From Marispirochaeta sp. (GTDB lineage Bacteria; Spirochaetota; Spirochaetia; JC444; Marispirochaetaceae): DNA of 64,000 bases. Each line of letters opens with the position of its first letter. The stretch's first letter is position 1. Shown here one piece after another: positions 10,166-54,379 of the stretch. The stretch lies in assembly GCA_963676835.2 (NCBI GenBank), contig CAXXFF010000002.1, positions 1,024,001-1,088,000 of the forward strand, given 5' to 3'. Both the position numbers and the translations under genes were made by a program. The notes beneath the pieces were generated by a model, which was given only the letters and a program-made list of their open reading frames with translations, did not search any database and was not told the origin of the DNA.

Positions 10166-13100
10166 ACCCCATCTATCTTATTGTCATTGCCCTGGGTACC
10201 GCCTTTCTCCTCGGGCTCTTCAGAAAAGCGGCGCCCTCTCTACGCTCAGGAATTACCCTGCTGGCCCTTGCGGGTATGACGGCGGTCTCCGCGGCCTGGG
10301 CCTATGGAATACTCTTTGCCGGTGCAGAAGGCATCCAGGTATTCACCGCCGGATTCAAGCCGCCCCTCTCCATTAATCTTTATATGGGCAGAGCCGAAGC
10401 GGTGCTCCTGGTACTGGTAAACCTTACGGCATTCTTCAGCATGCTGTTCCTGGCAAAAGAGGTGAAGAGCACCTCAAGCTATATGCTCATGCTGCTGATG
10501 GTTTTTGTAACCGGACTCAACGGCGTGGTTATGACCCGGGACCTCTTTAACCTTTTTGTGTTTATCGAGATTGTCAGTATTGCTTCCGCCGGTCTGATCC
10601 CCTTAAAGGGCAGCCTGAAACAGCTCAGTGCGGGTTTCAAGTTCGTTATCGCCGGCGCCCTTGCCAGCGGTTTTATGCTCATCGGCATAATTTTTGTCTA
10701 CTACTCCACAGGCTCCCTCAACCTGGATGTAATCGCTTCCGGTATGACCCCCGCTCTGGCATCCGCCGGCTTCGTGGGGATTTTCCTGGTCTTTATCGGG
10801 GTTGTGATGGAGCTCAAACCCTTCCCGGTTAACGGCTGGGGTCTGGATGTCTACGAAGCATCTCTTCCTCCGGTAGCAGCCCTTGTAGCCGCGGGAACCG
10901 CCAGCGTCATGTTCTATGCCTTTACCAAGGTTATGGCCCTTACCGGCGGACTCCTCATCGGAGCCGCGGTTGTTATCGGTGCTCTTACCTTTGTGGGAAT
11001 GAACGTGCTGGCTCTAAAGCAGGATAAAGCACAGCGGCTTCTTGGCTATTCCTCCATCAGTCAGATGGGCCTGCTTCTTATGGCCTATGGTCTGCTGCGT
11101 CAGACAGGAAGCGAAAATGCCGAGCTGATTGTCTTCGGCCTGCTTATTACCCACGCCCTGGCCAAGGCTGCCCTCTTCTGGCTCGCCGGGATTGTGGAAA
11201 AAGAGAATATAAAAGAGTGGGCCATTATCCGTAAGAACCCCCTGGCTCTTATAGCCATGATTATGGCGGTATTCGGCCTTACCGCCTTTCCGCCCTTTCC
11301 CTCCTTCTTTGCCAAGTGGGAGCTGGTAATGGCACTGGCAGCCAAAGGGGGCTTCGGTTTTATAACAGTGATTCTGGTAGGGTCCTTTCTGGAAGCGGTC
11401 TATCTATTCCGCTGGCTGGGATACGCCCTGAAGCTGGACTTTAATCCTGGGGAAGAGGCCAACACCTCTGCTCTGTCCGCCCTGCCTTCACTGCTCTTCG
11501 GCCTGACTCTTGTCGGGCTGGGGTACCTGATGGGTACAGACTACGGTCTTTCCTGGATACCTCTGGCTGCGGTTTTAGGCTTTCTGGTTATCGATAAGAT
11601 TGACTCAAGAATCAAAACCACTCTTGCTCTGGTAATAATCGGCGCCTGGGGCTATCTGAACTACGAAAGCTACCTGGGGGATCTGTTCAAGACAATTTTT
11701 GCCGGGGTTTTTATCGGCGGAGCATTTCTTACTACTCTATCAGGCTACTATTACAAAGGGCGCAGGGGGGGATTCCACGCCTCCACAATGTCCATGTTCT
11801 TCGGCCTCTTTATGCTGCTCTCTGCGGAAACCATGCTTCAGTTTTTCTACGGTTGGGAGTTTATGGCCATCGGTTCCTACTTCCTGCTTATCCGGGGAAA
11901 GAAATCCATGCCCCACGGCTACAGCTACCTCATGTTCAGCATCGGCGGTTCCTTCGCCATGCTCATGGGCTTCGCCATGGCCTATCTCTCCAGCGGTTCT
12001 GCCGGCATGGATGCCCTGTTTCATATCACCGTGTATCCCGCAGTGGCCTACTCCCTGATGCTCATCGGCTTTATGACCAAGACCGCCACCATGGGATTTC
12101 ATACCTGGCTTCCCGGAGCCCACGGCGAGGCGGTTGCGGATATTCACTTCATGGCTTCAGCTATTCTGCTTAAGGCAGGAGTTCTGGGAATGATCTATGT
12201 ACTGTTGGGTATGGATCTCTCCATGTCCTACAGCCGCTGGATACTCATGACCATGGGCTGGCTGGGAATATTGAGCTCCCTCATCGGCAACGTCAACGCC
12301 GCCTTCCAGGAGAGCGCCAAGCGGCTTCTGGCCTGGTCCAGTATCGGACAGCTCGGGTACATTGTGTTCGGCCTCTCCACCATGAGCCATATGGGATGGC
12401 TGATCGCTCTCTCTCTTTCCATTACCCACTTCCTGTACAAGGGTATTCTCTTTCTGATAATCGGTGGAATCTCACTGAAGCTCGGAACCCCCATGATGTA
12501 CAAGATGGGCGGCCTGATCCGGCGCATGCCCTTCAGCTTCCTTGCGGTGCTGATTGCCATTATTACTCTTTCCGGTATCCCCCCACTTGTGGGATTTACC
12601 GCCAAGTGGATTCTCTACAATGTAACCGTGGGTAACGGTCTCTATTTTCAGGGCGTTATCGCCTCTTTCGCAGGCCTTGTGGCATTCCTCTACCTGTTCC
12701 GTCTGATTTTCTCAATCTTTCTGGGACAGCTGAAGGACGAGCATCGCAAGGTCGGGGAGATCAATATCTGGTTCCTGATCCCTGTGTATCTGCTTATCTG
12801 CTACATCATGGTTGTCTCCTTCCTGCCGGGTACTCTTCTCGGACCCATCGGGGACAAGCTTATGGCCTTCTTCCCGGATAATCCCATTATCTGGACCGGC
12901 TATCTGGCCAGTTCCGAGTTGGGCTACTTCAACGGCACCATGATTATGAATGTCTTTATGACCCTGTTTGCCATCAACTTTCTTATTCTCTTTTTCTTCA
13001 ATAAAAAGCGGGCCCAGAAGGTTGAACAGTTCAATATTGTCTACGCCGCCGAGAGGCCGGCACGGCCGGAAACAACCCACTTTGCCTATAACTTCTTTGC

Positions 13101-13290
13101 CCCTTACAGAAGGGCCGTCGGGGTACTGGAGTATCCCTTTGTGACAAAGTTCTGGAACGGCCTGAGTGATATTCTGCATGCCCTTGGAGGCTTATTCCGC
13201 AGGGTATACACCGGCAACGGCCAGACCTATCTGCTGCAGATGGTGGTTTTTGTTGTGGTCACCTACCTGCTGACCAAAGGAGGAATGTAA
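10159..13290 (+). CDS. Proton-translocating subunit made of two fused MrpD/NuoL-M-N-like modules (MbxH-H')
   Basis: Two sets of motifs: DLFNLFVFIEI / RLLGYSSISQMG / HALAKAALF and FFYGWEFM / HTWLPGAH / RLLAWSSIGQLG / HFLYKGILF. Confidence 0.9.
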   Translation: MVNPIYLIVIALGTAFLLGLFRKAAPSLRSGITLLALAGMTAVSAAWAYGILFAGAEGIQVFTAGFKPPLSINLYMGRAEAVLLVLVNLTAFFSMLFLAKEVKSTSSYMLMLLMVFVTGLNGVVMTRDLFNLFVFIEIVSIASAGLIPLKGSLKQLSAGFKFVIAGALASGFMLIGIIFVYYSTGSLNLDVIASGMTPALASAGFVGIFLVFIGVVMELKPFPVNGWGLDVYEASLPPVAALVAAGTASVMFYAFTKVMALTGGLLIGAAVVIGALTFVGMNVLALKQDKAQRLLGYSSISQMGLLLMAYGLLRQTGSENAELIVFGLLITHALAKAALFWLAGIVEKENIKEWAIIRKNPLALIAMIMAVFGLTAFPPFPSFFAKWELVMALAAKGGFGFITVILVGSFLEAVYLFRWLGYALKLDFNPGEEANTSALSALPSLLFGLTLVGLGYLMGTDYGLSWIPLAAVLGFLVIDKIDSRIKTTLALVIIGAWGYLNYESYLGDLFKTIFAGVFIGGAFLTTLSGYYYKGRRGGFHASTMSMFFGLFMLLSAETMLQFFYGWEFMAIGSYFLLIRGKKSMPHGYSYLMFSIGGSFAMLMGFAMAYLSSGSAGMDALFHITVYPAVAYSLMLIGFMTKTATMGFHTWLPGAHGEAVADIHFMASAILLKAGVLGMIYVLLGMDLSMSYSRWILMTMGWLGILSSLIGNVNAAFQESAKRLLAWSSIGQLGYIVFGLSTMSHMGWLIALSLSITHFLYKGILFLIIGGISLKLGTPMMYKMGGLIRRMPFSFLAVLIAIITLSGIPPLVGFTAKWILYNVTVGNGLYFQGVIASFAGLVAFLYLFRLIFSIFLGQLKDEHRKVGEINIWFLIPVYLLICYIMVVSFLPGTLLGPIGDKLMAFFPDNPIIWTGYLASSELGYFNGTMIMNVFMTLFAINFLILFFFNKKRAQKVEQFNIVYAAERPARPETTHFAYNFFAPYRRAVGVLEYPFVTKFWNGLSDILHALGGLFRRVYTGNGQTYLLQMVVFVVVTYLLTKGGM

Positions 13291-13291
13291 G

Positions 13292-14230
13292 ATGGAGTTT
13301 CAGTACATACACATACTCTATGCAGCCATAACCATCTTTATAACCATTAACTATGGTCTACTGCTGCAGGGAATAATCGGAAAGATTTATGCCCGGGTAG
13401 GCAAGCGGCGGGGAATCCGCATCTATCAGCCCTGGATCAATATTATCCGCCAGTGGGTAACCCGTTCATCAATTCACCACGGCATAATGTATTATCTGGG
13501 GCCGGTTTTCCGCTTTACCGGCGGAGGAGGAATCCTTATCTTCCTGCCCCTGGTCTACGGCGCTCCGTTGTTCTCTTCCTTTGTGGGAACCGGGGACCTG
13601 CTGCTGGTGCTCTACTTTATGTTCATCGGAACCCTGGGCATGGCCCTGGGCGGCGGTGAGGCGGGGCATCCCTATTCGGCCATCGCCGTAACCCGCGGAC
13701 TCTCCCAGGTAACCGCCGCGGAGGTACCGCTGGTACTGGCCATTTTCTCCATCTCAATCCAGTACGGAACCATGGATGTGATGAAGATTGTCGGAGCCCA
13801 GCAGGGAAGCTTTCTTAACTGGACCCTCTTTACCAACCCCCTGGCAACGGCGGCGGCAATGATCGCCTTTCTGGGATCCATGATGCGGAGCCCCTTTGAT
13901 GTGGTTCTTGCTCCCCAGGAAATTCCCATCGGACCTCCCACGGAGTATCAGTCCCAGTTTCTGGCCATGCTTATGACCAACCGTACTATCTTTCCCGTGG
14001 CCAAGACGGTGTTCTACGTGAACCTCTTTTTCGGCGGAGTTGCCCTCTATGACAATTATCTGCTGACCTTTCTGGTTTTCTTTCTCAAGACCTTCCTGGT
14101 CTATATGTGGTCCGTATTTGTGGGAGTCTCCTTTCCCCGCTTCCGGGTGGAGCAGAGTATCCGCTTCTTTCTTAAATGGCCCCTGCTCATCGGGGCGGCT
14201 GCGGTAATTGCGGCCCAGATAAGGTATTGA
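13292..14230 (+). CDS. NuoH-like membrane anchor (MbxM)
   Basis: ARVGKRRG..YQPW, RSPFDV..APQEI..GPPTEY, PRFRVEQ. Confidence 0.92.
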   Translation: MEFQYIHILYAAITIFITINYGLLLQGIIGKIYARVGKRRGIRIYQPWINIIRQWVTRSSIHHGIMYYLGPVFRFTGGGGILIFLPLVYGAPLFSSFVGTGDLLLVLYFMFIGTLGMALGGGEAGHPYSAIAVTRGLSQVTAAEVPLVLAIFSISIQYGTMDVMKIVGAQQGSFLNWTLFTNPLATAAAMIAFLGSMMRSPFDVVLAPQEIPIGPPTEYQSQFLAMLMTNRTIFPVAKTVFYVNLFFGGVALYDNYLLTFLVFFLKTFLVYMWSVFVGVSFPRFRVEQSIRFFLKWPLLIGAAAVIAAQIRY

Positions 14231-14232
14231 TT

Positions 14233-14898
14233 ATGGCAAAGATGAATTACAGCAAACGAAAAGCCGATCTGGAGCGGCGGACCGTCACCGGACCGGAGGG
14301 TGAGGTATTCGAAGTTGATCCCATGAAGGATTACTTCTGCGAGGCTCCTCCAAAGGTCTATAAGCCCTCCAAACTGACCCCCCTGGAAAAGTTCTACAAC
14401 TGGTGCCGGGCGGAGTCCATCTATATTCTCGGCTTTGGAACCGGCTGCGGCGCAATTGAGATGCGCCCCCTTATGAGCCCCATGTATGACGCCTACCGTT
14501 ACGGCGTTCACTGGCGGCCCACCCCCAGGCAATCCACGGTATTTGTCATCGGCGGATACGCCTCGGTAAAAACCATCAAGCGGATTGTCCGCAGCTACGA
14601 ACAGATGCCCGGGCCCAAGTATGTTCTGGCGGTCTGCAGCTGCACCATTAATGGCGGCATGTACTGGGATTCCTACAACACCATCAACCGGCTGGATCAT
14701 TATATTCCGGTGGATATCTATGTTACCGGCTGCATGCCCCGGCCGGAGGCAATTCTCGATTCTGTAGAGGCCCTCAAGAAACGAATTAAAGAAGGACGGG
14801 CGGAAGGGCAGAACAAGTATGCGGAAAACTTCGAATGGTACAAGGCAAACCAGAAACAGATTATCAAGGACTGGGATATGCCGGACTACAACTGGTAA
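14233..14898 (+). CDS. NuoB-like Fe-S small subunit (MbxJ)
   Basis: GTGCGAIE, PTPRQ, QMPGPKYV, CTINGG, VDIYVTGCMPRPE. Confidence 0.92.
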   Translation: MAKMNYSKRKADLERRTVTGPEGEVFEVDPMKDYFCEAPPKVYKPSKLTPLEKFYNWCRAESIYILGFGTGCGAIEMRPLMSPMYDAYRYGVHWRPTPRQSTVFVIGGYASVKTIKRIVRSYEQMPGPKYVLAVCSCTINGGMYWDSYNTINRLDHYIPVDIYVTGCMPRPEAILDSVEALKKRIKEGRAEGQNKYAENFEWYKANQKQIIKDWDMPDYNW

Positions 14899-14910
14899 GG
14901 AGGTTAATGG

Positions 14911-15471
14911 ATGGAAACGATTATTGAAAATATCAAGAAACAGTTCAGCCTGTCCGACGTCACCTCCGCCCACGGGTACTTTATTACCTGTGAAAAGAAG
15001 GATGCCGTCAGTCTGCTGACTTACCTGAAAAACGTGGAAGGCTTTAAACACCTGGTGCTGATAACCGCGGTGGACTGGATCGAAGACGGACGCTTTCAGC
15101 TGACCTATCTGCTGAATAATCCGGTAATGAAGAAGGAGCTGGGGGTCCGGACATTTATCGAACGGAGTGTCTGGCCGGAAGAATCCGAAATGGATACCGC
15201 CCACCATCTCTGGCCGGCTGCCAAGACCTACCAGCGGGAGCTGCATGAAATGTTCGGTATCGATTTTCCCGGCAGTCCCGAGATCAATGAACCCCTGATT
15301 CTTGAATACTGGGATGATATTCCTCCCTACAGAAAGGACTTCGATACGAAGAAATACTCTGAAGAGACCTACTTTCCCCGGGAGGGCAGAAGCACCAATG
15401 ATCCTGCTGAGTACATGAAAGCTAAGCTCTATCCCCGGGAGGGGGAGAAGACAAAAAAGGGGGATGCCTAG
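14911..15471 (+). CDS. NuoC-like subunit (MbxK)
   Basis: ITAVDW, RELHEMFGIDFPG, PPYRKDF. Confidence 0.92.
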   Translation: METIIENIKKQFSLSDVTSAHGYFITCEKKDAVSLLTYLKNVEGFKHLVLITAVDWIEDGRFQLTYLLNNPVMKKELGVRTFIERSVWPEESEMDTAHHLWPAAKTYQRELHEMFGIDFPGSPEINEPLILEYWDDIPPYRKDFDTKKYSEETYFPREGRSTNDPAEYMKAKLYPREGEKTKKGDA

Positions 15472-15557
15472 CATGGGACCCTTTTTTAGTCGAATAGCGG
15501 TAGAGTGTTTTCCGCATCAGCGGAAAAGTACTCGAGAGCGATATAAGGAAAAGAAAG

Positions 15558-16739
15558 ATGCTTGATTACGGCGAAAAGAACCGGGAACTCTTCCCCGAAA
15601 CGAAGAGCGACGGCACCATCGATATAGATCTCTCTTCCGGAAAGTTCACCAAGCTCTGGCATGGACCCAACCATCCGGGAATTACCGGAAATATGTCCCT
15701 GGAGCTGACCCTGTTAGGTGATGAGATTATGGAGTCCAAAACCCATGTGGGCTATCTGCACCGGGGGTTTGAGAAGCTGATGGAGCGGCGCCGCTTTATC
15801 AACAACTTCCCCTTGGTCTGCCGGGTATGTGTACCGGAGCCGGACTTCAATGAGTACTGCTATGCCGCGGCCCTTGAAGAGCTTGCCGGGGTTGAGGTCC
15901 CGGAGAAAGCCCTGTGGATCCGCACCCTGATTCTGGAAATGGCCCGGCTGCAGTCATATTTAATGTGGATCGGCGGACAGGCCGGTGCCTTCGGTATGGG
16001 CATGGTTGGACAGTGGACCTTATGGGCCCGAGACCGGGTACTGCAGATGTTTGAGGAACTCACCGGCGGACGCATCTATCATATCTTTATTCTCCCTGGC
16101 GGTGTGCGCAACAATCTTACCGAAGGCTTCAAGGGCCGGATGCTGGAGACCCTCAATGACGTGGTTTCCATACTCAACGATGTGGAACGGGTTCTCTTCA
16201 ACAACGCGGTGTTTAAAAAACGTGCCGTAGGCCTCGGGGTGATTGATCCCGACTGGGTGGATGAGTACGGCATAACCGGCCCCAACGCCCGGGCGGCGGG
16301 TGTCCCGAAGGACGTGAGAAAAGACAACCCTTACGTAAAATATGCGGAGCTCGATTTTGAGCCGGTAACCGGCACGGACTCGGATGTCTATACCCGGGCC
16401 CGGGTCCGCTTTGATGACTGCCTGATGACCGTGGATCTTATCCGTCAGATTCTGGACAGGATCCCGGAAAAAGGTGAGTTCAAGGCAAAGATGCCCAGTA
16501 TGCTCCACTGGAAAATCCCCGCCGGCGAAACCTATAAAAAAGCGGAATGTACCCGTGGTGAGTACGGCTACTACATTGTAACCGACGGCTCCGGTTATCC
16601 CCGCAGGGTCAATGTCCGTGGGCCTTCATACACCCATGCGGTAACCCTGGCAGAAAAGATGCTGGTCAACGCAAACCTTGCGGATGTGGCGGGTACCCTG
16701 GTATCCCTGCATACCTATCCGCCGGAAGTGGAGAGATAA
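15558..16739 (+). CDS. NuoD-like large subunit (MbxL), no complete NiFe site
   Basis: GPNHPG, GYLHRGFEKL, RVCVPEPD, ECTRGEYG, RGPS; C-terminus HTYPPEVER. Confidence 0.92.
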   Translation: MLDYGEKNRELFPETKSDGTIDIDLSSGKFTKLWHGPNHPGITGNMSLELTLLGDEIMESKTHVGYLHRGFEKLMERRRFINNFPLVCRVCVPEPDFNEYCYAAALEELAGVEVPEKALWIRTLILEMARLQSYLMWIGGQAGAFGMGMVGQWTLWARDRVLQMFEELTGGRIYHIFILPGGVRNNLTEGFKGRMLETLNDVVSILNDVERVLFNNAVFKKRAVGLGVIDPDWVDEYGITGPNARAAGVPKDVRKDNPYVKYAELDFEPVTGTDSDVYTRARVRFDDCLMTVDLIRQILDRIPEKGEFKAKMPSMLHWKIPAGETYKKAECTRGEYGYYIVTDGSGYPRRVNVRGPSYTHAVTLAEKMLVNANLADVAGTLVSLHTYPPEVER

Positions 16740-20950: not shown

Positions 20951-22906
20951 TTACTTCTCAATCCGGTTTCTTCCCCGGTTTTTGGCAACATAGAGAAGTT
21001 CATCCGCCCTGCTTACCATTTTAGACGAGCTTTCTCCCAGATTCTCAGCAACGCCGCCGCTGATGGTTATTTTCCTGTTGGTATCAAATTCCCAGGTAAC
21101 TTTAGAAACCAGCTCCCGCAGTCTGTCTGCAAGATCATATGCTTCTTTCAATCCTGTTTCCGGAAGCACAACAAGAAATTCTTCTCCTCCGTACCTGCCG
21201 ATAATGTCGGTTTCTCTCAGGTTGTTTTTAATAACCTCCACAGTTTTCAACAGGACAAGGTCGCCAATCTGGTGCCCGTAACAGTCATTTACACTTTTAA
21301 AAAAGTCGATATCAAATAAAATGATGGAGAGACTGTTGTTATATCGGGTACTTCTCTTCACTTCTTCTTCGAGATACCCGCTGATGTACTTCTTGTTGAA
21401 AATCATGGTCAGGCCGTCTCTTATTGAGATATACCTCAGGGATTCCAGGGCCTTTTCTGCAATTGCTTCTTTCTCTTTCAGCCGCTCCGTCATGACATTA
21501 AAATAGTTGGTGACATCTCCCATTTCCGAGCCTATGTCTGATTCCAGTTTCTGTATCCCGTCTACTTTACTGTTTTCGATGATTTGTCTCATTGAGTTTG
21601 AAAGTTCAATGACGCTGGAGCATGACCCGTGTTCCGCGATATTCAAGCCGATCTTCTCATGCTCCGGCGAGACCCTGACCGGTATGAATCTTTTTATTCC
21701 CGCAAGGATAAGAAATGAAAGTCCAAATCCCCAGACAAAGCAGGTAATGACTCCGATACCCTGAATGCCGATCAGTTCGAGTCTGGTGTGGCTGAGTTCG
21801 GTAAGGATGCTGTTTTTTATAAAGACTCCGGTGGCAATGGTACCCCATACACCGGCAAAAGCGTGAACAGGAACAGCGGAAACAACATCATCAATACCTG
21901 CTTTTTCAAGCAGGTTCGTACCGTAGTAGACAATCAAACCGGCGACGATTCCGATTACCAGGGATGCGCCGGAGGGAACATAGGCACATCCTGCGGTGAT
22001 GGCAACCAGCCCTGCAATCACCCCGTTGATGATCATCTCCGGTTCCGGAAGCCTGCTTTTACCCATGGACATGCTTAAAAACATGGAGGTTATTCCCCCG
22101 AAGGAGGCTGCAATAATAGTATTCAGTACAATCTGTGCAACCCCGGGATCTGCTTCCAGAGAACTTCCGCCGTTAAAGCCGAACCAGGCGAAAAAGAGAA
22201 TAAAGGTACCCAGATAGGCAAATACAATATTGTGCCCCTGAATTTTCTGGGGAGTACCATCGGCAGCAAATCTACCCGTACGGGGACCGATTACAATCGC
22301 GCCGGCCAGGCCCACCCAGCCGCCGATGGAATGCACAACGCTTGATCCTGCAAAATCGAGAAAGCCCAGATTCTGCAGCCAGCCGGCCTGGTTTTCGTAG
22401 AAGAGTCCCCCCCAGGCCCAGTGGCCGAAAATAGGATAAATAAGCGCTGATGTAATAAAGGACATTATCAGATAGGTACTGAATTTTGCCCGCTCCGCCA
22501 CAACTCCGGAATCGATGGTTGCCGCGGTACCTACAAAAACAGCCTGAAAAGTAAAAAAGGTTGCTTTCCAGCTGTCATCATTAAAGGAGGTGAAAAAATC
22601 AGAAATACCCACAAGGCCGAGAAAAGATCTGCCGAACATCAGTCCGTACCCGATAAACCAGAAGGCGGCAATGGAGAAGATAAAGTCCGTAAGGTTTTTG
22701 ATGGCGACATTTATTGAGTTCTTCGCTCGTGAAAGTCCTGTTTCCAGGGCCATGAATCCTGCCTGCATAAGGAACACCAGCATTGCGGAGACTAGAACCC
22801 AGAGGATGTCGTCAAGAGATTTGCCGTTTGAAATACCTTCTGTAATTCCCTGGGAAAAGAGCGGATTCAGTAAAAGCAGCAGTGCGGGAACAAGGAGGTA
22901 TCGCAT
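20951..22906 (-). CDS. Ammonium transporter (Amt) fused to a GGDEF domain
   Basis: MQAGF..LETG, AER, HWAWGG, DFAGSSVVH, WFGFNGGS, DDVVSAVPVH; C-terminal RETD..GGEEF. Confidence 0.94.
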   Translation of the reverse strand: MRYLLVPALLLLLNPLFSQGITEGISNGKSLDDILWVLVSAMLVFLMQAGFMALETGLSRAKNSINVAIKNLTDFIFSIAAFWFIGYGLMFGRSFLGLVGISDFFTSFNDDSWKATFFTFQAVFVGTAATIDSGVVAERAKFSTYLIMSFITSALIYPIFGHWAWGGLFYENQAGWLQNLGFLDFAGSSVVHSIGGWVGLAGAIVIGPRTGRFAADGTPQKIQGHNIVFAYLGTFILFFAWFGFNGGSSLEADPGVAQIVLNTIIAASFGGITSMFLSMSMGKSRLPEPEMIINGVIAGLVAITAGCAYVPSGASLVIGIVAGLIVYYGTNLLEKAGIDDVVSAVPVHAFAGVWGTIATGVFIKNSILTELSHTRLELIGIQGIGVITCFVWGFGLSFLILAGIKRFIPVRVSPEHEKIGLNIAEHGSCSSVIELSNSMRQIIENSKVDGIQKLESDIGSEMGDVTNYFNVMTERLKEKEAIAEKALESLRYISIRDGLTMIFNKKYISGYLEEEVKRSTRYNNSLSIILFDIDFFKSVNDCYGHQIGDLVLLKTVEVIKNNLRETDIIGRYGGEEFLVVLPETGLKEAYDLADRLRELVSKVTWEFDTNRKITISGGVAENLGESSSKMVSRADELLYVAKNRGRNRIEK

Positions 22907-30238: not shown

Positions 30239-31273
30239 ATGCGTGCACTGGTAAAGTTTAAAGAAGGCTATGATGGTCTTGAGATACGGGATATGCCGAT
30301 CCCGGTTCCGAAGGCTAATGAGGTTCTGGTAAAGGTTCATTCCTGCGGGGTCTGCGGTACGGACCTGAAAATACAGGAAGACGGTTTTCCCTATACACCT
30401 CCGGTAATCATCGGGCATGAGTTTTCCGGAACCATTGAATCTGTCGGTTCCGCGGTAAACGGCTGGGCTCCCGGGGAGAGGGTAATTGCAGAACAGCATT
30501 TTCATCATTGCGGTAAATGTGAGTACTGCCTCACCGGCAGGCGTCAGTTTTGTCCTTCGAAGAAATCTCCCGGATATTTTTCCGACGGTGCTTTTACTGA
30601 GTACATTGCGGTGGAAGAGTCCCTTCTTCATAAAATTCCTGAAAACCTGACCTTTGAGCAGGCCGCCCTGGTTGAGCCCATGGGTATTGCCGCATCTGCA
30701 ATTCTCGGTAAAGCCGGGGTAAATCCCGGAGAGTTTGTAGTAATTCTGGGTACCGGGCCCATTGCCCTACTTGCCCTTCAGATGGTGAAGGCTGCAGGAG
30801 CATCCCATGTGGTGACCACCGGGCTTGATGCGGATGAAGATTCCCGCTTCAAGGCGGCCCTCGCATTCGGTGCTGATATGACCATAAATGTTCAGCGGCA
30901 GGATCCTGTAGCTGTGGTAAAAGAGACTACCGGCGGTAAAATGGCCGACCTGGTTATCGACCTGTCCGGGGCTGCACCGGCGATTCTCTCCGGATTCAAC
31001 ATGCTCAAAAAAGACGGCCGCTTCTGTGCAATCGGTCTTCCCCATGGAAATGTGAACTTTCCCTGGGCTGATGCTGTGCTCAAAGCGGTTACGGTCTTCT
31101 TCAGTTTCAGCTCCGATTTCCGCGCCTGGGAACGTTGTCTTCAGATGATGTCGGATGGAAAGATAAAAACCGACGGATTTACCGATAACTGCTATCCACT
31201 GGAAAAATGGTCCGAGGCTCTGGATATGGCCAGAAGCGGAAAGGCGCTGAAGGTGATAATTCAGCCGAGTTGA
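30239..31273 (+). CDS. Zinc-dependent medium-chain alcohol/polyol dehydrogenase
   Basis: CGTD, GHEFSG, CGKCEYC..C, EP, GTGPIA; GGAGG RBS. Confidence 0.92.
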   Translation: MRALVKFKEGYDGLEIRDMPIPVPKANEVLVKVHSCGVCGTDLKIQEDGFPYTPPVIIGHEFSGTIESVGSAVNGWAPGERVIAEQHFHHCGKCEYCLTGRRQFCPSKKSPGYFSDGAFTEYIAVEESLLHKIPENLTFEQAALVEPMGIAASAILGKAGVNPGEFVVILGTGPIALLALQMVKAAGASHVVTTGLDADEDSRFKAALAFGADMTINVQRQDPVAVVKETTGGKMADLVIDLSGAAPAILSGFNMLKKDGRFCAIGLPHGNVNFPWADAVLKAVTVFFSFSSDFRAWERCLQMMSDGKIKTDGFTDNCYPLEKWSEALDMARSGKALKVIIQPS

Positions 31274-31372: not shown

Positions 31373-32680
31373 TTACGCTTTTTCTCCCCGTGCCAGCCGT
31401 ACATGGGAGTCGGCCATCTCGTAACCGGCTGCCTGGGCACAGGCGGTATTCAGATCCAGGGCAGTAACTGCTGCGGCACAAATCTCCGCAAGACGCATTA
31501 CATGATTATTATCCTCGGGACTGGTTCCGCATCCGGCGCAGTCGATCAGCGAGAGGGCTTCTTTCGCTGTTCCGAAGGCTGCTCCTCCGCCGATGGTGGC
31601 CACTTCAAGAGAGGGGAGAGAGGCGGTAAAGCGCAGATTGTCTCCAATCTCCTCGGCCTGAATAAAGCAGCTGGAAGAGGTGATTACCTGTGCAAGATCC
31701 TGTCCGGTGGCGGCAAAGAACGCCGCAATGGTATTGGCGGCATTTACATTAAAACCAGTCAGTGTACCGCTGAAAGATGAGCCAAGGTAGCATTTATGAA
31801 AAACCACCTTCTCGACACTTCTCGGGGTAACACCTTTCTTGAATACCTCGGTAAGGACCTCTGCGGGAACTATCACTTCAGTCTCAACGGATTTTCCCCT
31901 GCCGTTTAACACATTTATATGGGCAGCTTTTTTGTCGGTGCAGACATTGCTGCTGATGGTTACCAGCTTCCAGCCTTCTTTCCGCTTCAGAACCTCACGG
32001 ATAATATCGGCAGATGCCTTGGTAACCCCGTTCATACCCATGGCATCTCCGGTTTTAAATGACAGGCGCAGAATAACCTTTACCCCTATCTGATAGGGAT
32101 CGATTTTTATCAGGTTAACAAAAGGGTCTCCTGCAAAGCGTCCAAGATCAGCTGTCAGAGTGCTCTGATTCTGCTGTATCTCTTTGACAAATTTATCGGC
32201 TTCGTAAATATCCGGTGCTTCAATCATGGGTGCCCGGGCCATTGAATCTTCCCTGACCAGGGTGGTAATTCCGCCGGCTTTATTTATTGCCTTTATTCCG
32301 CGCTGAACTCCTGCCACAAGGGCTGCTTCGTTGGTTGCAAGGGGAATATAGTATTCACCGTCGGCATACCTGCCTTTGATTTTCAATGGGCCGGCAATCC
32401 CCATGGGGACCAGAGCGGCTCCAACCTTCATTTCTATACCGGTAAGGAGTGAACCCTCTGCACCTGCCATGGCATTATCTATACGGCTCTGTTTTATCAG
32501 GGAAAGATTTTTCCCTGTCCTTTTTTCAACATCTTCACAGCGGATAATACCGGCAATATGACAGGCGTCATTTATTTTTGTTGCATCGCCTGCAAACAGT
32601 TCTGTGAAAACGACGGTTTCCAGTTCCCGGCCTTTTATTTTTCCAGTGCTGAAACGCTCAGCAATTTGTGAATAATCCAT
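31373..32680 (-). CDS. HMG-CoA reductase, class I fold
   Basis: PLATNE, MARAP, GDAMGMN, cis-loop SSNVCTDKK, GRGKSV, GQDLAQ, C-terminal SH; AAGGAG RBS before ATG 32680. Confidence 0.9.
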   Translation of the reverse strand: MDYSQIAERFSTGKIKGRELETVVFTELFAGDATKINDACHIAGIIRCEDVEKRTGKNLSLIKQSRIDNAMAGAEGSLLTGIEMKVGAALVPMGIAGPLKIKGRYADGEYYIPLATNEAALVAGVQRGIKAINKAGGITTLVREDSMARAPMIEAPDIYEADKFVKEIQQNQSTLTADLGRFAGDPFVNLIKIDPYQIGVKVILRLSFKTGDAMGMNGVTKASADIIREVLKRKEGWKLVTISSNVCTDKKAAHINVLNGRGKSVETEVIVPAEVLTEVFKKGVTPRSVEKVVFHKCYLGSSFSGTLTGFNVNAANTIAAFFAATGQDLAQVITSSSCFIQAEEIGDNLRFTASLPSLEVATIGGGAAFGTAKEALSLIDCAGCGTSPEDNNHVMRLAEICAAAVTALDLNTACAQAAGYEMADSHVRLARGEKA

Positions 32681-32709
32681 TTTTGATCTCCTTTTATCTA
32701 CGTGAGCGC

Positions 32710-33573
32710 TTATACAAGCGAACGGGCGAAAACGCCGCATTCAGTTATTTTTTCTGCATCAATACCGGTTTCAATTCCCATGCGGTGAAACATATCCACA
32801 ATGGTCTCTGTTGCAGTGTTTCCGGTGGCCCCGGGAGCAAAGGGGCATCCCCCCAGGCCGCCTACGGATCCGTCAATCACGGTAATCCCCGCTTGCATGG
32901 CTGCCAGAATATTGGCGAACTCAATACCGTTTGCCCGGTGAAAGTGGGCCGCTACGGATGCTTCAGACAGGGCTGACTTGACTGCCTTGCATACTTCATA
33001 ACTGCTGGCGGGGGATGCCATTCCGGTAGGGTCTCCCAGGGATATTTCATAGGAACCGTAGGATTCCAGCTCCCGGGCAATATTAACCAATGTTTCCACC
33101 GGGATTGCTCCCTCCATGGGGCAGCCGAAAGAAGTTGCTATGTATGAACGTACCCGCAGCCCCGCCTCGGCGGCCTTCCGGTTTATCTCCTTTATCTGGG
33201 CAAGGGAATCGGCCATGGGCATATTGAGATTTTTTTTATTGTGGCTTTCGCTGGAACTCATAATGGTGATAACTTCCTTGAGCCCCGATTCAATAGCCAG
33301 TTCCAGCCCTTTCATGTTGGGGATAAGGGCGTTCAGGAGTATTCCCTTACGCTCTCCGATTGCAGCTACAACCTCTTTGGCATCCTTCATCTGGGGAACC
33401 CATTTGGGAGAAACAAAGGATGTCAGCTCTATTTTCTGACAACCTGCATCGATAAGCTTCTCAATCAACTCCAGTTTGCTCTCGGTGGGTACAAACTTTT
33501 TCTCATTCTGCAGTCCGTCCCTGGGGCCAACCTCAAAGATTTCAAGCTGCTTTGGATAATTCCAATCCGTCAT
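32710..33573 (-). CDS. Hydroxymethylglutaryl-CoA lyase
   Basis: EVGPRDGLQNE, SFVSPKWVPQM, FGCP.EG, HFH, GLGGCPFAPGATGN. Confidence 0.93.
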   Translation of the reverse strand: MTDWNYPKQLEIFEVGPRDGLQNEKKFVPTESKLELIEKLIDAGCQKIELTSFVSPKWVPQMKDAKEVVAAIGERKGILLNALIPNMKGLELAIESGLKEVITIMSSSESHNKKNLNMPMADSLAQIKEINRKAAEAGLRVRSYIATSFGCPMEGAIPVETLVNIARELESYGSYEISLGDPTGMASPASSYEVCKAVKSALSEASVAAHFHRANGIEFANILAAMQAGITVIDGSVGGLGGCPFAPGATGNTATETIVDMFHRMGIETGIDAEKITECGVFARSLV

Positions 33574-33592
33574 TCAATCCTCCTGTTTTACA

Positions 33593-34261
33593 CTAATCTT
33601 CCAGACCTATATTGAATCTCATATGATTTATGTTTTTCCGGATACAGCGGATAGATTCATCCGTGTGCCTGAGTTTAAGAAAGCTGATAAGTTCGTCATG
33701 ATCTTTCATGGCTGCATGGTTTTTTTCATAAGCCAGTAGCTCTGTCTCCACAAGTCTGATGAGCTGAACGAATTCCCCTGTCCGCTCCAGCAGTTCAATG
33801 AGGAAGTCATTTCCGGAACCCTTGGCCAGTTCGTGGTGAAACTGAAAATCAAGGCGGTTGCATTTTTCGTAGTCTTTGTCTGCAAGGGCTGCTTCGAGTT
33901 GGCGGTTTATCTCTTCCAGATGGTTGATCCGCTCCGTATCCGCATGCCTGATGAACTCTGCAACGGCTAACGACTCGAGGTTGAGCCGTACATCCAGAAG
34001 ATCACTGATCTCCCGGCGTGACATGCGCCGGCAGTAGCTGCCTCTTTGGGGTGTGGATTCCAGAAGCCTCTCTGCTGTCAGTCTGTTTACCGCTTCTCTC
34101 ACCGGGGTTCGGCTGACATCAAGTTTTTTTGCCACCTCTTCTTCTACTATCTTCTGCCCCGGAGCGTAGATTCCCTGGAGAATCATCTGTTTTAACTGCC
34201 AGTAGATTCTGTCTTTGAGGCTGGCAAACTGTGCTGTATTGGAAAAAGGTACGTTAGCCAT
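33593..34261 (-). CDS. GntR/FCD transcriptional regulator
   Basis: VSRTPVREA, FHHEL, DHDELI; ATG 34261 chosen (34276 possible). Confidence 0.92.
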   Translation of the reverse strand: MANVPFSNTAQFASLKDRIYWQLKQMILQGIYAPGQKIVEEEVAKKLDVSRTPVREAVNRLTAERLLESTPQRGSYCRRMSRREISDLLDVRLNLESLAVAEFIRHADTERINHLEEINRQLEAALADKDYEKCNRLDFQFHHELAKGSGNDFLIELLERTGEFVQLIRLVETELLAYEKNHAAMKDHDELISFLKLRHTDESIRCIRKNINHMRFNIGLED

Positions 34262-34265
34262 ATGA

Positions 34266-34359
34266 AATGTATACATTGTGATGGGGTATCTGTCAAATTA
34301 ATTAGAAATTACCGGAAATTAAGGAGTAAGCCCTCCAAAACAGGATAAAAATGTATACA
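34266..34359 (-). promoter_or_regulatory. Promoter overlapped by TGTATACA dyads, likely GntR operators
   Basis: AATGTATACATT at 34266-34277 over the -10 of a TTGACA (34296-34291) promoter; second TGTATACA at 34352-34359. Confidence 0.6.
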
Positions 34360-34497: not shown

Positions 34498-35187
34498 CTA
34501 TAGTTGCGTGAGGAATGTTGTGTACTGGTCTTTCTGCTCCGGAAGTACGCCGGCTTCGATATTCTGCGCAAGGTAGGCAAAGAGCTGTTCCCGGTACTGC
34601 TGGTCAACCTCCTGCATAATTGCCGGACCATAGACCGAAAGGTTCTTTTCAAGTAAGGCATAAATATCTTCCGGCAGTGCAGCTGTGTAAAGGGTAATAA
34701 TACTGCCTAAAACCATATTCACTCCGCCAACCTGTGCCTGCTGCAGTCCTTGCAGGCGGGTCTGGTAGGTGTAGCTTTCCGGATCAAGCTCTGTCAGATA
34801 CTCCCGTGATGCCTGCAGAACGCCTGCAAAGAGATGGGCGAGGACTGCGGTCATCTTAATAATCCGCTCGCTTGGTACAGGATTTGTGAGACCCTCCTCT
34901 TTTTGCAGCAGAACATTGAGATTGGTATAAATGGGAAGAATAAAATCCAGACCGGCTTCAGCCGATTGCGATTTGAGCTGCTGATCAAAGATTTCCCAGT
35001 TCAGATATATCTCATCCAGCAGGGTGTCGCTGATTCCCACTGTTTGGTTTTTATCAGCCAGATCCGTTTCTATCTGGAGTGCTGAAACAGCTTTGTTGAT
35101 GTCGAAAGGATTCTCCTGAGCAATCAACGAAACCGATGCACAGACAAGTAAGAGAAGAGCTATTGTAGTTGTTTGTTTCAAATTCAT
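34498..35187 (-). CDS. Hypothetical exported alpha-helical protein
   Basis: Signal peptide (LLLLVCASVSLIA-QE); no family recognised. Confidence 0.7.
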   Translation of the reverse strand: MNLKQTTTIALLLLVCASVSLIAQENPFDINKAVSALQIETDLADKNQTVGISDTLLDEIYLNWEIFDQQLKSQSAEAGLDFILPIYTNLNVLLQKEEGLTNPVPSERIIKMTAVLAHLFAGVLQASREYLTELDPESYTYQTRLQGLQQAQVGGVNMVLGSIITLYTAALPEDIYALLEKNLSVYGPAIMQEVDQQYREQLFAYLAQNIEAGVLPEQKDQYTTFLTQL

Positions 35188-35227: not shown

Positions 35228-35911
35228 TCAGAGCAGTCGTATCGAATCTCTCATAATATCTATATCATGTACCATTTCGTCCCGGGCCAGAGCTGAGAAG
35301 CCGTTCTCCAGAGCACGTATTATTGCATAATGATACCTGGTATTAACCATGCCGGGATTGCTGTTGGTTTTTTGACCGATTGCCTTGTATGCCAGCCAGT
35401 GATACCGGGCAATTCTGCTCTGTACGCTCCTGTATAATTCAAGGAGATATTTGTTTCTTGAGGCGTTAATAATTACCTGATGGAACTCACAATCCAGTTC
35501 TGCATATTTTTGACATGATTCGTCTGTGGTACTCAGATATCTGGCGTGTAGTTCGTTCAGCTTGGTTATCTCTTTCTGTGAAATTTCTTTTGCCGCAAGA
35601 AATGCAGCTTCCCCTTCTATTCCTTTTCGCATGGCACAGAGGTCAAGACAATCTTCAACACTCATATAGGAAACCCGGGGCATTTTACCTGGTTCCTTCT
35701 CTACCAGTCCGTTCATATGCAGCCTTTTAATAGCTGAACTAACGGGAGATCGGCTTATTCCTGTATCACGTGCGATCTTCAACTCATTAATTCTGGAACC
35801 GGGATTTATCTTCAAGGAAATTATATCATCAAACAGATGTTCATATACAATCTGGTTTATCGGGGTGAAGGGGTTTATATCCAGTTTTTTTTGCAGGTCT
35901 TCCCGGTTCAT
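35228..35911 (-). CDS. GntR/FCD transcriptional regulator
   Basis: ISRSPV, DCEFHQVI, ASRNKYL; GGAGG RBS before ATG 35911. Confidence 0.9.
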   Translation of the reverse strand: MNREDLQKKLDINPFTPINQIVYEHLFDDIISLKINPGSRINELKIARDTGISRSPVSSAIKRLHMNGLVEKEPGKMPRVSYMSVEDCLDLCAMRKGIEGEAAFLAAKEISQKEITKLNELHARYLSTTDESCQKYAELDCEFHQVIINASRNKYLLELYRSVQSRIARYHWLAYKAIGQKTNSNPGMVNTRYHYAIIRALENGFSALARDEMVHDIDIMRDSIRLL

Positions 35912-36062
35912 AAAACCTCCAGAGTAGGCGTAATGGTACATATACAGGCAGAGCATTATAAAGCGGGAAATGTATAATGGACAGGTTTTTCAGCAGATCA
36001 TAATGATTTTTAACCGAACCGGAAAGAGTTTTTTCTTCCCGGTTCGGCATAAGGAACTGGAG

Positions 36063-36830
36063 TCAGCTTTTTACAGCTTTTGCATAGGCTATCGCCGAGG
36101 ACATAAGAAAGCTCATGTCCACGTGTACAACTGCATCGAATCCTTGTGCAAAAGTTGGCTCTATAGCTTCCATCGCCATTGCGAGACCAAGGCAGAATTT
36201 GCCCGAATCTCTGCAGGCCTTTGTTACACGCTCAATAGCTGAAATAAAAGTCGGATCTTGAAACTGTGCCGGTTTTCCCAGAGCAATAGAAAGGTCATAG
36301 GGCCCGAGGAAAATCCCGGCTACACCCTCGAGGTCGCAAATTTCCTCAATGCATTCAAGAGCTTCAACAGTTTCGCATTGGGGAATAATCAGGGTCTCTC
36401 GATTGCAGGTTTCAAAATATTCTTCAGTGCTTTTATACCCGGGCATCATACCAAATGCATTTATGCGGCTGGCGCCGAATCCTCTCTGTCCCATGGGAAC
36501 GTACTTCGCATACTCTATTACCTGCTGTACTTCTGCTACAGATTTTATAAATGGAACCATTAAACCCATCGCTCCGATATCAAGCATTTTAAGTATGGAT
36601 GAGCGGGATGCATCTTTGACCCGGACTATAGGGACAATATCACGCCTTTCTGCAGCGAGAATAAGTTTAACTGTACTTTCTACATCTGACGGACCATGCT
36701 CTGTATCTATAATTACAAAGTCCAGCCCCGCAAGGCCCAGGCTTTCAATTACTGCACTGCTGTCGAGGATGGAGAAGGCGCCAGCCATTTTTTCTCCCTT
36801 CGAAAATTTCTCAAGTATTTTATTATTCAT
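36063..36830 (-). CDS. HpcH/HpaI (GarL-like) class II aldolase
   Basis: IDTEHG, VRV, LDIGA, P.GQRG, QCET, FLGPYDLS. Confidence 0.9.
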   Translation of the reverse strand: MNNKILEKFSKGEKMAGAFSILDSSAVIESLGLAGLDFVIIDTEHGPSDVESTVKLILAAERRDIVPIVRVKDASRSSILKMLDIGAMGLMVPFIKSVAEVQQVIEYAKYVPMGQRGFGASRINAFGMMPGYKSTEEYFETCNRETLIIPQCETVEALECIEEICDLEGVAGIFLGPYDLSIALGKPAQFQDPTFISAIERVTKACRDSGKFCLGLAMAMEAIEPTFAQGFDAVVHVDMSFLMSSAIAYAKAVKS

Positions 36831-37073
36831 CAATTGTTGTCTCCTTATTTATGGATTGATGTCGGAAATTATAGGGCTATCTATTTTCATGTGTCAAAAA
36901 ATATGCGAACTGGCAGGATTACAGGTAAACTGTATATGACAAGAATCACTATTGCTGTACTGCTTCATTTATGAACATAGTTTGAAGCATGGTGCTGATT
37001 CTGTGAAACAAAATTATCAGTCTGCTAATCCTGTCTTAATAAAAACAGAACATTAATATTGAGTTATAAATTC

Positions 37074-51362: not shown

Positions 51363-52904
51363 CTATGTCACCGGCGCCGGATTAAAAATCGCCAGATCGT
51401 TCTTCAGGCCGAACTTCTCCGCCGCAGTAACCTTTCGTCCGCTGGCGGTATCCAGAAGCAGGTTGAAAAGCTCCCAGCCTATCTCTTCAATGGTGGCCTC
51501 GCCTAAAACAATGCTGCTGGAATCAAGATCAATCAAATCAAACCAGCGGTGGGAAAGGTCCCTTCTCGAAGAGACTTTCAGAACCGGTGCTGCCGGCAGG
51601 CTGTACGGGGTTCCCCGTCCGGTGGTGAATATCTGTATACTTATGCCCGAGGCAAGCTGACAGGTTCCGCAGAAAAAGTCGCTTGCAGGGGTTGCTGCAA
51701 AAACGAGACCCTTCTTTTTGATCAGTTCTCCCGGCCCGATAACATCATCGATATTCATTGAGCCCGATTTGATAACCGATCCCATGGCTTTTTCAACAAT
51801 ATTTACCAGTCCGCCGGTTTTGTTTCCCGGGGTGGTGTTGGCGCTGCGGTCCACTCCGCCTGTATGAAGGTAATTATCATACCAGTCGAGTTCGCTGATA
51901 AGCTTGTCAAAGGTCGCTTTTTCTTTGCACCGGGAGGCCAGCACCGGAGCTGCGTCCCGAACTTCCGATACTTCGCTGAATACTGCCGTAGCTCCGGCCC
52001 GTACCAGCAGGTCTACAACAAATCCGACTGCGGCATTTGCGCTGACTCCGGAGAATGCATCGCTTCCACCGCATTGTACTCCCAGTCTCAGGTCGGAGAG
52101 GGGGCACTCAACCCGTTTTCTTTTATTGAGTTTTTCCAGATGTTTTATGCCCAGTTTCACAGCGGCATCCACCATGTCCATGTAGCCCTTCAGGGATTCA
52201 TCCTGGAGTATCATGGTAGAGAGAGAGTCTCTCGGGGTTCCCGCTTTCTCTACATGAAAGGCTTCGAGATTCTTCATCTCAAGCTTTTCACAGCCAAGGC
52301 CTATCATCATAACCTCGCCCCCCAGATTGGGATTAACAGAGAGGTTTTCCACCTGGCGGATGGGGATAAACGCTGCCGGGGCGTTTATGGCAACACCGCA
52401 GCCGTAGATGTGATTCAGGCCGACGATATCATCTACATTGGGAAAGCGGCTTAGGTGCTCTTCCTTTAAAATACGGACTACATGGTTAACAATACCGGAA
52501 ACACACTGCACACTGGTGGTTATTCCCAGGATATTACGGGTGCCCACGGTACCGTCCGCATTGCGGTAACCCATGAAGGTGTAGCCTTTTAGGGGTTTGC
52601 AGGGTACCGGCGGAGGCTGTTTCCATACCAGGTCTTTCAGTGCCGGAGAAGGGGGCATTTCTACAATCTTTTCCTGAACCCAGCGGCCGGCTTCGATGGA
52701 TTCCAATGCGGTTCCAATGGCAACCCCGTAGCGGATAATTCTTTCCCCCTTCGCAATAAAGCGGAGTGAGATTTTGTGTCCCTGGGGAACATCCTCTATG
52801 AGGGTTACTCCCTCTTTTTCCAGTTTTTCACCGGCTTTCATTCCGGTACTGCCGACGGCTATGGCAACATTGTCACCGTCATTGATTTTTATAGCCTGTA
52901 TCAT
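51363..52904 (-). CDS. garD: Galactarate dehydratase
   Basis: SAF domain, GYRNADGTVGTRN, HIYGCG, QCGGSDAFSG, ANTTPGNK.GG, FNPAPVT. Confidence 0.93.
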   Translation of the reverse strand: MIQAIKINDGDNVAIAVGSTGMKAGEKLEKEGVTLIEDVPQGHKISLRFIAKGERIIRYGVAIGTALESIEAGRWVQEKIVEMPPSPALKDLVWKQPPPVPCKPLKGYTFMGYRNADGTVGTRNILGITTSVQCVSGIVNHVVRILKEEHLSRFPNVDDIVGLNHIYGCGVAINAPAAFIPIRQVENLSVNPNLGGEVMMIGLGCEKLEMKNLEAFHVEKAGTPRDSLSTMILQDESLKGYMDMVDAAVKLGIKHLEKLNKRKRVECPLSDLRLGVQCGGSDAFSGVSANAAVGFVVDLLVRAGATAVFSEVSEVRDAAPVLASRCKEKATFDKLISELDWYDNYLHTGGVDRSANTTPGNKTGGLVNIVEKAMGSVIKSGSMNIDDVIGPGELIKKKGLVFAATPASDFFCGTCQLASGISIQIFTTGRGTPYSLPAAPVLKVSSRRDLSHRWFDLIDLDSSSIVLGEATIEEIGWELFNLLLDTASGRKVTAAEKFGLKNDLAIFNPAPVT

Positions 52905-52981
52905 GCTGATTACCCTCGATGTTTGACTTAACAGTATAGGCTTTTATGAAAATTACGTAGAGAAACTGACTTTTCTGAATA

Positions 52982-53016
52982 ATTCAACAGGGACCGATTT
53001 TCAGCCCCTGTTGAAT
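52982..53016 (-). terminator. Intergenic hairpin between gudD and garD
   Basis: ATTCAACAGGG...CCCTGTTGAAT, 11-bp arms. Confidence 0.55.
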
Positions 53017-53023
53017 ATTAATC

Positions 53024-54355: not shown

Positions 54356-54379
54356 AATTGTATCCTTCTGATGTACTGA

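Follow-up and report, generated by a model that had tools for sequence, protein, structure and literature searches.

A reductase-lyase gene pair in Marispirochaeta

We examined a 64,000-nt stretch of a Marispirochaeta sp. genome (contig CAXXFF010000002.1, positions 1,024,001 to 1,088,000; hereafter the window), in which three consecutive minus-strand genes encode a GntR-family regulator, an HMG-CoA-lyase-family enzyme and an oxidoreductase resembling class I HMG-CoA reductase (HMGR) (Table 1). The lyase-HMGR pair is real, widespread and, as far as we searched, undescribed, and its genomic setting points to a catabolic role. As an earlier sequence-only reading of this DNA had described, the three genes are co-oriented, and the coordinates agree with its gaps of 19 nt between gntR and the lyase gene and 29 nt between the lyase and HMGR genes. 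Both enzyme frames are intact, with ribosome-binding sites (AGGAGG and AAGGAG) preceding the lyase and HMGR starts, and the 29-nt gap together with the conservation of the two genes as neighbors suggests that they are co-transcribed in the window. This three-gene form, gntR-lyase-HMGR, is reduced relative to fuller clusters found elsewhere.

Table 1. Positions of the genes and sites discussed in the text (coordinates without a locus name are those of the window)
Feature	Position	Strand	Description
gntR	34261-33593	minus	222 aa; GntR family with FCD domain; second in-frame ATG at 34276
HMG-CoA-lyase-family enzyme	33573-32710	minus	287 aa
Class I HMGR-like oxidoreductase	32680-31373	minus	435 aa; D-P-F clade
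Candidate operator, perfect 12-bp palindrome AATGTATACATT	34266-34277		Over the possible -10 box
Second candidate operator AATGTATACAAA	34350-34361
Possible promoter, TTGACA, 17 nt, TATACA	34268-34296	minus	Noted by eye; not listed by the consensus scan
Archaeal (Nezhaarchaeales-type) Asp-Pro class I HMGRs	L032:3446-4678, L033:8001-9233, L035:6238-7479		Genomes G427-G429

A class I reductase with an altered cofactor site

The best family match of the reductase is TIGR00533, the NADPH-linked equivalog, yet its score of 306.5 bits lies below that model's cut-off of 441.8 bits. Against the degradative class II model TIGR00532 (mvaA) it reaches 35.8 bits, short of the cut-off of 259.95, and class II entries in the PDB match at E-values of 2e-4 or worse only. 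An AlphaFold model (predicted local distance difference test score 89) superposes on human, plant and archaeal class I structures with Z-scores of 39-41 and a root-mean-square deviation of about 2.1, compared with Z-scores of at most 29 for class II; by this predicted structure the enzyme is of class I fold, with the cis-loop SSNVCTDKK. All of the motifs listed by the sequence-only reading were found (EMKVG, GDPF, GDAMGMNG, SSNVCTDKK and NVNAAN), as were ATNE, GQD and DSH, and the catalytic residues that it had named, Glu118 (ATNE), Lys250, Asp328 (GQD) and His426 (DSH), are invariant in the clade of close homologs that we refer to as the D-P-F clade, from which the window enzyme departs at one of 161 near-invariant columns. 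It also retains the carboxylate-site residues R149, S243, K251 and K296, and all HMG-binding residues named in PMC7503714 bar Leu853.

The distinguishing feature lies in the cofactor site. In a HMMER alignment to PDB entries 2q1l and 1dq8, gap-free from about residue 113 to 281 with a constant offset of 441, D185-P186-F187 falls on human Ser626-Arg627-Phe628, exactly where it had been placed by eye in the sequence-only reading; we take Ser626 and Arg627 to contact the 2'-phosphate of NADPH specifically. All three human residues are among those of the NADPH site (PMC7503714). The query and its 119 best homologs all carry the triplet, and Asp-Pro occupies the Ser626-Arg627 site in all 159 clade sequences (alignment gaps not counted), whereas the Ser626 position in 224 other class I sequences holds Ser or Thr in 215, Asp in 5, Glu in 3 and Gly in 1, and Arg is found at the Arg627 position in 129. 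In addition, human Met659 is replaced in the clade by Gly (G218, following DAMGMN). Sequences P0186, P0189, P0213, P0238 and P0261 likewise have an acidic residue at the Ser626 site.

In class II HMGRs, selection of NAD is due to an Asp located at the adenine ribose (PMC10070635, PMC12292504), as described for Asp146 and the NAD specificity of the Pseudomonas mevalonii enzyme (PMC10070635). Class I HMGRs have been described as using NADPH exclusively (PMC13488460, 2026), a rule repeated in PMC13001223, and as biosynthetic. Because of the Asp at the Ser626 position and the class II precedent, we consider it likely that the reductases of the D-P-F clade use NAD. A profile alignment to class II comparing Asp146 with Asp185 gave matches too weak to use.

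The lyase and its clade-specific changes

The lyase scores 360 bits against the HMG-CoA lyase model NF004283 (cut-off 246 bits), and its residues R18, D19, E49, Y144, H210, H212, C243 and N252 correspond to the catalytic and metal residues named in PMC3435538. It nevertheless differs from five solved HMG-CoA lyases at positions that are invariant or nearly so among 120 homologs: the clade has Ile104 for Phe, Ser143, Thr183 for Ile and Glu218 for Ala, the last a new residue, while the Asp-Thr after the HxH motif is absent. The accessible part of PMC6941031 contains nothing on lyase pocket residues.

The window lyase has one further change, Pro182 (base 33030) in place of the Thr of GDTxG, which is present in 118 of the 120 homologs and in all five solved lyases. 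The only other carrier of Pro182 among these homologs is P0301, which is 80% identical. A public contig, possibly the source of this DNA, matches the whole stretch without difference, base 33030 included. Pro182 may mark a sub-lineage in which the lyase either has changed its substrate or is less active.

Linkage and distribution of the pair

Across 40 clade loci, which include near-duplicates, a lyase of the same clade adjoins the HMGR gene in 32, directly upstream in 30. In seven of the eight loci without the lyase, the sequence stops no more than about 200 bp upstream of the HMGR gene, leaving a single real miss (L041, within a 4-kb contig). By comparison, a lyase neighbor was found at none of 89 other class I HMGR loci, many of them short, so the co-occurrence of the Asp-Pro motif with lyase neighbors, which the sequence-only reading had singled out for a survey, is borne out for the clade. 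Pairwise distances of the two proteins are also correlated (Spearman 0.68 over 30 loci, reached in 0 of 2000 permutations), supporting tight linkage and co-evolution of reductase and lyase.

Clade identity is 62-70% among the best 119 homologs. In a quick tree of 67 rows, from which at least eight rows with fewer than 280 aligned residues had been dropped, the clade is monophyletic (Shimodaira-Hasegawa-like approximate likelihood ratio support 100) and nested, with the root not fixed, within a grade of lone HMGRs, a Micrarchaeota protein among them; this placement offers a suggestion of an archaeal donor. Named carriers belong to Bacillota, Spirochaetota and Planctomycetota, intermixed on the tree, and include Clostridia, spirochaetes and planctomycetes, with Marispirochaeta aestuarii and Caldicoprobacter guelmensis as cultured examples. 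The distribution is patchy. No clade member was present in a sample of 400 genomes of the same phylum, 21 of which had other class I HMGRs of at most 42% identity. Nearer to home, the clade HMGR was found in 5 of 60 relatives and in 3 of 5 same-genus genomes. The window enzymes share no more than 64-67% identity with their same-genus counterparts, and the adjoining GntR is different, so the pair in the window looks like a separate acquisition.

Among the individual loci, the clade HMGR of L018 (G413:C120) is broken by one TAG stop, and genome G415 has two clade-like copies. Some of the divergent class I HMGR domains of the same phylum (L125-L127, L129-L131, L133 and L134) lie in frames of 612-994 aa, several with altered loops (GDASGQNM or GDAAGQNM), and are possibly fused, non-canonical proteins.

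Genomes without a mevalonate pathway

The sequence-only reading had noted that no mevalonate biosynthesis genes were nearby, and we found none elsewhere either: the Marispirochaeta genome, which is 97% complete, has one HMGR and no HMG-CoA synthase or mevalonate kinase. It encodes DXR and the methylerythritol phosphate (MEP) pathway, and its three GHMP kinases, with translations read by eye, appear to be IspE and two galactokinase-like proteins. That reading had also raised the case of a sole biosynthetic HMGR in a genome with the full mevalonate pathway; this is a MEP genome instead. Of 25 carrier genomes, 21 have a DXR match over cut-off, 1 a mevalonate kinase match and 2 a match to the HMG-CoA-synthase family. 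A mevalonate cluster was found in only one carrier (G402), where it includes an additional, class II-like HMGR. Given the MEP pathway and the lack of HMG-CoA synthase and mevalonate kinase, a catabolic, non-biosynthetic role of the D-P-F HMGR is well supported by genome content. In such genomes, the presence of an HMGR gets misread as the presence of a mevalonate pathway.

Fuller clusters and candidate substrates

The sequence-only reading had proposed that mevalonate or an analogue is oxidized to HMG-CoA and cleaved to acetoacetate and acetyl-CoA. Use of the acetoacetate released by HMG-CoA cleavage needs a thiolase, and a thiolase over cut-off was present in 5 of 26 carriers, with a fragment in one more. 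The Marispirochaeta genome has one CoA-transferase-family gene and lacks thiolase, BKACE and an above-cut-off 3-hydroxybutyrate dehydrogenase. With these enzymes missing and the pairs of relatives situated in sugar-catabolic clusters, the route from mevalonate to acetoacetate and acetyl-CoA is not supported as stated; the clusters favor an analogue, and mevalonate itself is a doubtful substrate.

Neighbors at the 40 clade loci comprise a Zn-dehydrogenase (17 loci; replaced in some loci by a short-chain dehydrogenase, SDR), ABC permease (13), PCC domain (11), aldolase of the RraA/HMG-aldolase family (10), binding protein (8), xylose-isomerase-like barrel protein (7), apiosidase-like protein (6), 2-hydroxyacid dehydrogenase (5), Gfo/Idh/MocA protein (5), GH2 (4), split transketolase (3) and glycerate kinase (2). 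The cluster Zn-dehydrogenase is nearest to threonine dehydrogenases, and in the fuller clusters the pair shares its orientation with genes for glycosidases and sugar ABC transporters. In two same-genus genomes (G432 and G434), a single run of genes comprises gntR, a pair of apiosidase-like genes, an ABC system, PCC, SDR, the lyase and the HMGR; a third (G430) has only gntR-lyase-HMGR. Two loci additionally carry genes for an SDR and a 3-hydroxyacyl-CoA dehydrogenase-like protein. A TRAP or branched-chain-type transporter, a lactate racemase or a tartrate-dehydrogenase-like gene occurs at single loci, hinting that the central compound is a free hydroxy acid.

The barrel protein is encoded in 22 of 30 carrier genomes and, among relatives, in 5 of 6 carriers versus 4 of 55 non-carriers, kin that are not independent. 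Elsewhere in its genome, Marispirochaeta has a barrel protein, an ortholog of the 2-hydroxyacid dehydrogenase, a MOFRL-type glycerate kinase and two acetate kinases. Its barrel gene (G000:C2:522236-525595; L177:7236-10596) sits behind a gene for an 805-aa transketolase-like protein and adjoins tripartite transporter-like genes. The glycerate kinase gene lies about 10 kb past the window end, beyond a galactarate/glucarate cluster (51363-57483, minus strand) encoding galactarate dehydratase, glucarate dehydratase, a DHDPS-family protein, tartronate semialdehyde reductase and a CdaR-like regulator.

Barrel isomerases, 2-hydroxyacid dehydrogenases, glycerate kinases and transketolases are families that handle hydroxypyruvate. 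For this reason, our first guess for the substrate would be a hydroxymethyl-branched acid cleaved to hydroxypyruvate, of the apiose/apionate, hamamelonate or xylo-isosaccharinate type. The second guess would be aceric acid of rhamnogalacturonan II, as the threonine-dehydrogenase likeness would suit the expected 3-hydroxy-2-oxobutanoate.

A proposed route and its alternatives

We propose, with some confidence, that the pair is central to a catabolic route of anaerobic MEP bacteria, acting on a branched sugar acid that is most likely not mevalonate. A polyhydroxylated branched acid would first be released from a glycoside or imported free, a step suggested by gene context and absent from the window. 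Following known HMGR chemistry, the HMGR-like enzyme would then use NAD+ and CoA to oxidize the terminal alcohol or aldehyde of this mevalonate-shaped hydroxy acid to a CoA thioester, which the lyase would split by a metal-dependent retro-Claisen cut beta to the thioester, yielding acetyl-CoA (or glycolyl-CoA) and a small 2-oxo acid or ketone. ATP would be gained via acetate kinase, and the oxo acid would enter metabolism through glycerate. The direction of the pair is likely oxidative. We see about even chances that this amounts to an undescribed, laterally spread fermentation route for a branched plant sugar or sugar acid, in which an NAD-switched, archaeal-derived class I HMGR serves as a CoA-acylating dehydrogenase and a paralog of HMG-CoA lyase debranches its product with conservation of a thioester. 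In Pseudomonas mevalonii, HMGR and HMG-CoA lyase are encoded together in mvaAB, a mevalonate-catabolic operon. The convergent, mvaAB-like catabolism envisaged in the sequence-only reading is upheld in its class I fold, lyase link, acidic site and non-biosynthetic context, and is not supported, as stated, in the conversion of mevalonate to acetoacetate. Of the observations that this reading named as refuting, those open to a check here did not occur.

Several observations weigh against the proposed route. Arg431, equivalent to the NADPH-site residue Arg871 of the human enzyme, is invariant, so that the NADPH site is partly retained. The HMGR pocket has no diagnostic change, its carboxylate- and hydroxyl-binding residues all being kept; the replacement of His752 by Asn (Asn313) is common to the sister grade of lone HMGRs, one of them from Micrarchaeota, and Thr412 and Gln416 also occur in 27 and 25, respectively, of the 224 other class I enzymes, archaeal ones included. 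We therefore rejected these three residues as proof of a new substrate, and because they recur in other class I enzymes, mevalonate may still be accepted. The neighboring gene families are broad, differ between loci and are typed to Pfam/NCBIfam family level; the apiosidase-like protein matched PDB 4n0r only, a putative glycoside hydrolase, and Atlas and PDB searches named neither it nor the barrel protein beyond family level. The Marispirochaeta genome has no apiosidase-like gene and no ortholog of RraA or of the cluster dehydrogenase, and the carrier genomes are mostly drafts whose completeness is not stated. Finally, Asp-Pro occurs in the sole HMGR of three archaeal genomes (Table 1), two of them with mevalonate kinase. 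These archaeal enzymes, which also carry the Met-to-Gly change, are probably biosynthetic and are candidate NADH users. A single origin of all Asp-Pro enzymes was rejected (approximately unbiased test, p 6e-5; quick tree of 30 rows), which together with the archaeal cases indicates that Asp-Pro arose at least twice and is not itself a sign of catabolism.

The alternative that survives best, although we regard it as unlikely, is that mevalonate itself is converted through HMG-CoA to acetyl-CoA and acetoacetate, with use of the acetyl-CoA alone and the acetoacetate excreted or reduced by the neighboring SDR or Zn-dehydrogenase. The retention of the HMG-binding residues except Leu853 (PMC7503714), the lyase score of 360 bits over a cut-off of 246, the bare pair seen at many loci including this one, and the SDR plus 3-hydroxyacyl-CoA dehydrogenase-like gene added at two loci are all consistent with it. 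However, thiolase is absent in 20 of 26 carriers and in Marispirochaeta, which has no BKACE or above-cut-off 3-hydroxybutyrate dehydrogenase either, and both the glycosidases and sugar ABC transporters co-oriented with the pair and the clade-wide changes in the lyase pocket weigh against it.

Rather less probable is that the window holds a stranded remnant, its uptake and upstream genes lost and its lyase impaired by Pro182, irrespective of the role of the complete cluster in other genomes. Orthologs of the cluster dehydrogenase, RraA aldolase and apiosidase-like protein are indeed missing from a 97% complete genome, position 182 is Thr in 118 of 120 homologs and five solved lyases, and same-genus G430 is similarly reduced against G432 and G434. 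But the frames are intact and have ribosome-binding sites, the HMGR departs at just one of 161 columns, Pro182 is shared with the 80%-identical P0301 and so has been held over some divergence, several other spirochaete loci likewise consist of a bare pair, and the downstream barrel protein is retained.

An electron sink operating during sugar fermentation, in which the lyase would join acetyl-CoA to a keto acid and the reductase would consume two NADH in reducing the thioester to a branched dihydroxy acid for excretion, seems improbable. HMG-CoA lyases are known as cleaving enzymes, the thioester would be wasted, and importers, glycosidases and substrate-type regulators point to uptake and breakdown, even though the NADH-type site equally suits reduction, the carriers are fermentative anaerobes judging by the named taxa, and HMGRs usually favor reduction (as the Borrelia enzyme, PMC13488460). 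An ordinary NADPH-linked biosynthetic HMGR is highly improbable: TIGR00533 as best match, homologs labeled "NADPH" in databases and the retained Arg871 equivalent are outweighed by a score of 306.5 against 441.8 bits, by a MEP genome without HMG-CoA synthase or mevalonate kinase, and by the separate HMGR within the cluster of the one mevalonate-cluster carrier.

Regulation and surroundings of the locus

The sequence-only reading had called the operon GntR-controlled, which is plausible at this locus but does not characterize the system as a whole, as a GntR gene lies near the pair at 6 of the 40 clade loci, others having two-component systems. The window GntR is 30-40% identical to the GntRs beside relatives' clusters and is not their ortholog. 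The 8-mer TGTATACA occurs at 34268, where it is the core of the palindrome AATGTATACATT, and at 34352; there are 4 occurrences in the window versus 0.27 expected, and 74 genome-wide, while AATGTATACATT is unique in the genome. The 8-mer lies upstream of 3 of 27 GntR paralogs and was not found at relatives' clusters. Further occurrences at 38816 (before a 119-aa gene) and 45448 (between genes for a MalT-like regulator and rubredoxin) are maybe due to chance or to other regulators. A promoter consensus scan returned nothing above chance, and the possible promoter in Table 1 ends 6 nt before the gntR ATG, which would give a nearly leaderless message. Repression of its own operon by this GntR through the candidate operators is plausible, as an arrangement local to the Marispirochaeta window.

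Directly upstream of the operon, 34498-35187 (minus strand) encodes a 229-aa protein that begins like a signal peptide and matches no Pfam or NCBIfam family. At 1-2.6 kb upstream of the operon lie genes for another GntR/FCD regulator and an HpcH/HpaI-type aldolase (35228-36833, minus strand), in DNA of lower G+C content (43-45%). As a guess, this aldolase could stand in for the RraA-type aldolase of relatives' clusters. On the other side, convergent with the operon, lies a Zn-dependent dehydrogenase gene (30239-31273, plus strand). The cluster dehydrogenases form their own branch, 45-58% identical to the L031 reference; the window protein is 27-35% identical to them and was not counted as a pathway member, and could be a stand-in or unrelated.

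Farther away in the window, we noted a [FeFe]-hydrogenase-like domain fused to a chemotaxis signaling domain (57566-59782, minus strand), probably a hydrogen- or redox-sensing receptor; a run of Mrp-antiporter-like and complex-I-like subunits (9108-16739, plus strand) similar to those of a membrane-bound energy-converting hydrogenase or a related complex; and a 651-aa open reading frame (20951-22906, minus strand) whose product, judged by eye, looks like a fusion of an ammonium transporter and a GGDEF domain.

Comparison with known systems

A full-text search, with subscription journals outside its scope, found no published account of the pair, of an NAD-linked class I HMGR, or of an aceric or isosaccharinic acid pathway, and the accessible part of bioRxiv 10.64898/2026.03.13.711244 has no aceric-acid pathway. 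The bacterial HMGR network of PMC13488460 could hold clade sequences unremarked. If the proposed route is correct, it would provide the first natural NAD-linked class I HMGR together with a new way of debranching sugars. The large, conserved acidic-site clade lets the NADPH-only rule for class I be tested, an NADH-accepting class I enzyme would be of interest to isoprenoid engineers, and the pair is a candidate debranching step in anaerobic degraders of plant biomass.

The reductase resembles other class I HMGRs (Methanothermococcus, PDB 6hr7 and 6hr8; human, 1dqa; Arabidopsis, 7uli) in fold, cis-loop, catalytic residues, CoA and carboxylate residues and the Arg871 equivalent, and differs from them in having Asp-Pro for Ser/Thr-Arg and Gly for Met after DAMGMN, and in occurring in genomes without a mevalonate pathway. 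Similarly, the lyase shares the DRE motif, HxH metal site, Cys-loop and 40-50% identity with HMG-CoA lyases (Bacillus, 1ydo; human, 2cw6; Pseudomonas, 2ftp; NF004283), but it has Ile for Phe, Thr for Ile in GDTxG and no Asp-Thr, and is linked to a reductase rather than to leucine degradation.

Microbial breakdown is little known for the more than 40 natural branched sugars (PMC13753588). The D-apiose and D-apionate routes, of which one transketolase and three oxidative routes are summarized in that paper, resemble the fuller clusters, compared by family only, in their branched-sugar context and in apiosidase-like, split transketolase and barrel families nearby; by contrast with the route proposed here, no CoA-thioester route appears in the accessible part of PMC13753588, and "HMG" occurs nowhere in that paper.

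A close parallel is P. mevalonii mvaAB, with which the pair shares the joining of HMGR and lyase, an acidic residue at the adenine ribose and an inferred oxidative direction. In contrast to mvaAB, the reductase belongs to class I rather than class II, the lyase gene comes first, the hosts are anaerobes mostly without thiolase, and the neighbors are sugar genes. Thus, the pair works like mvaAB and is not a member of that system.

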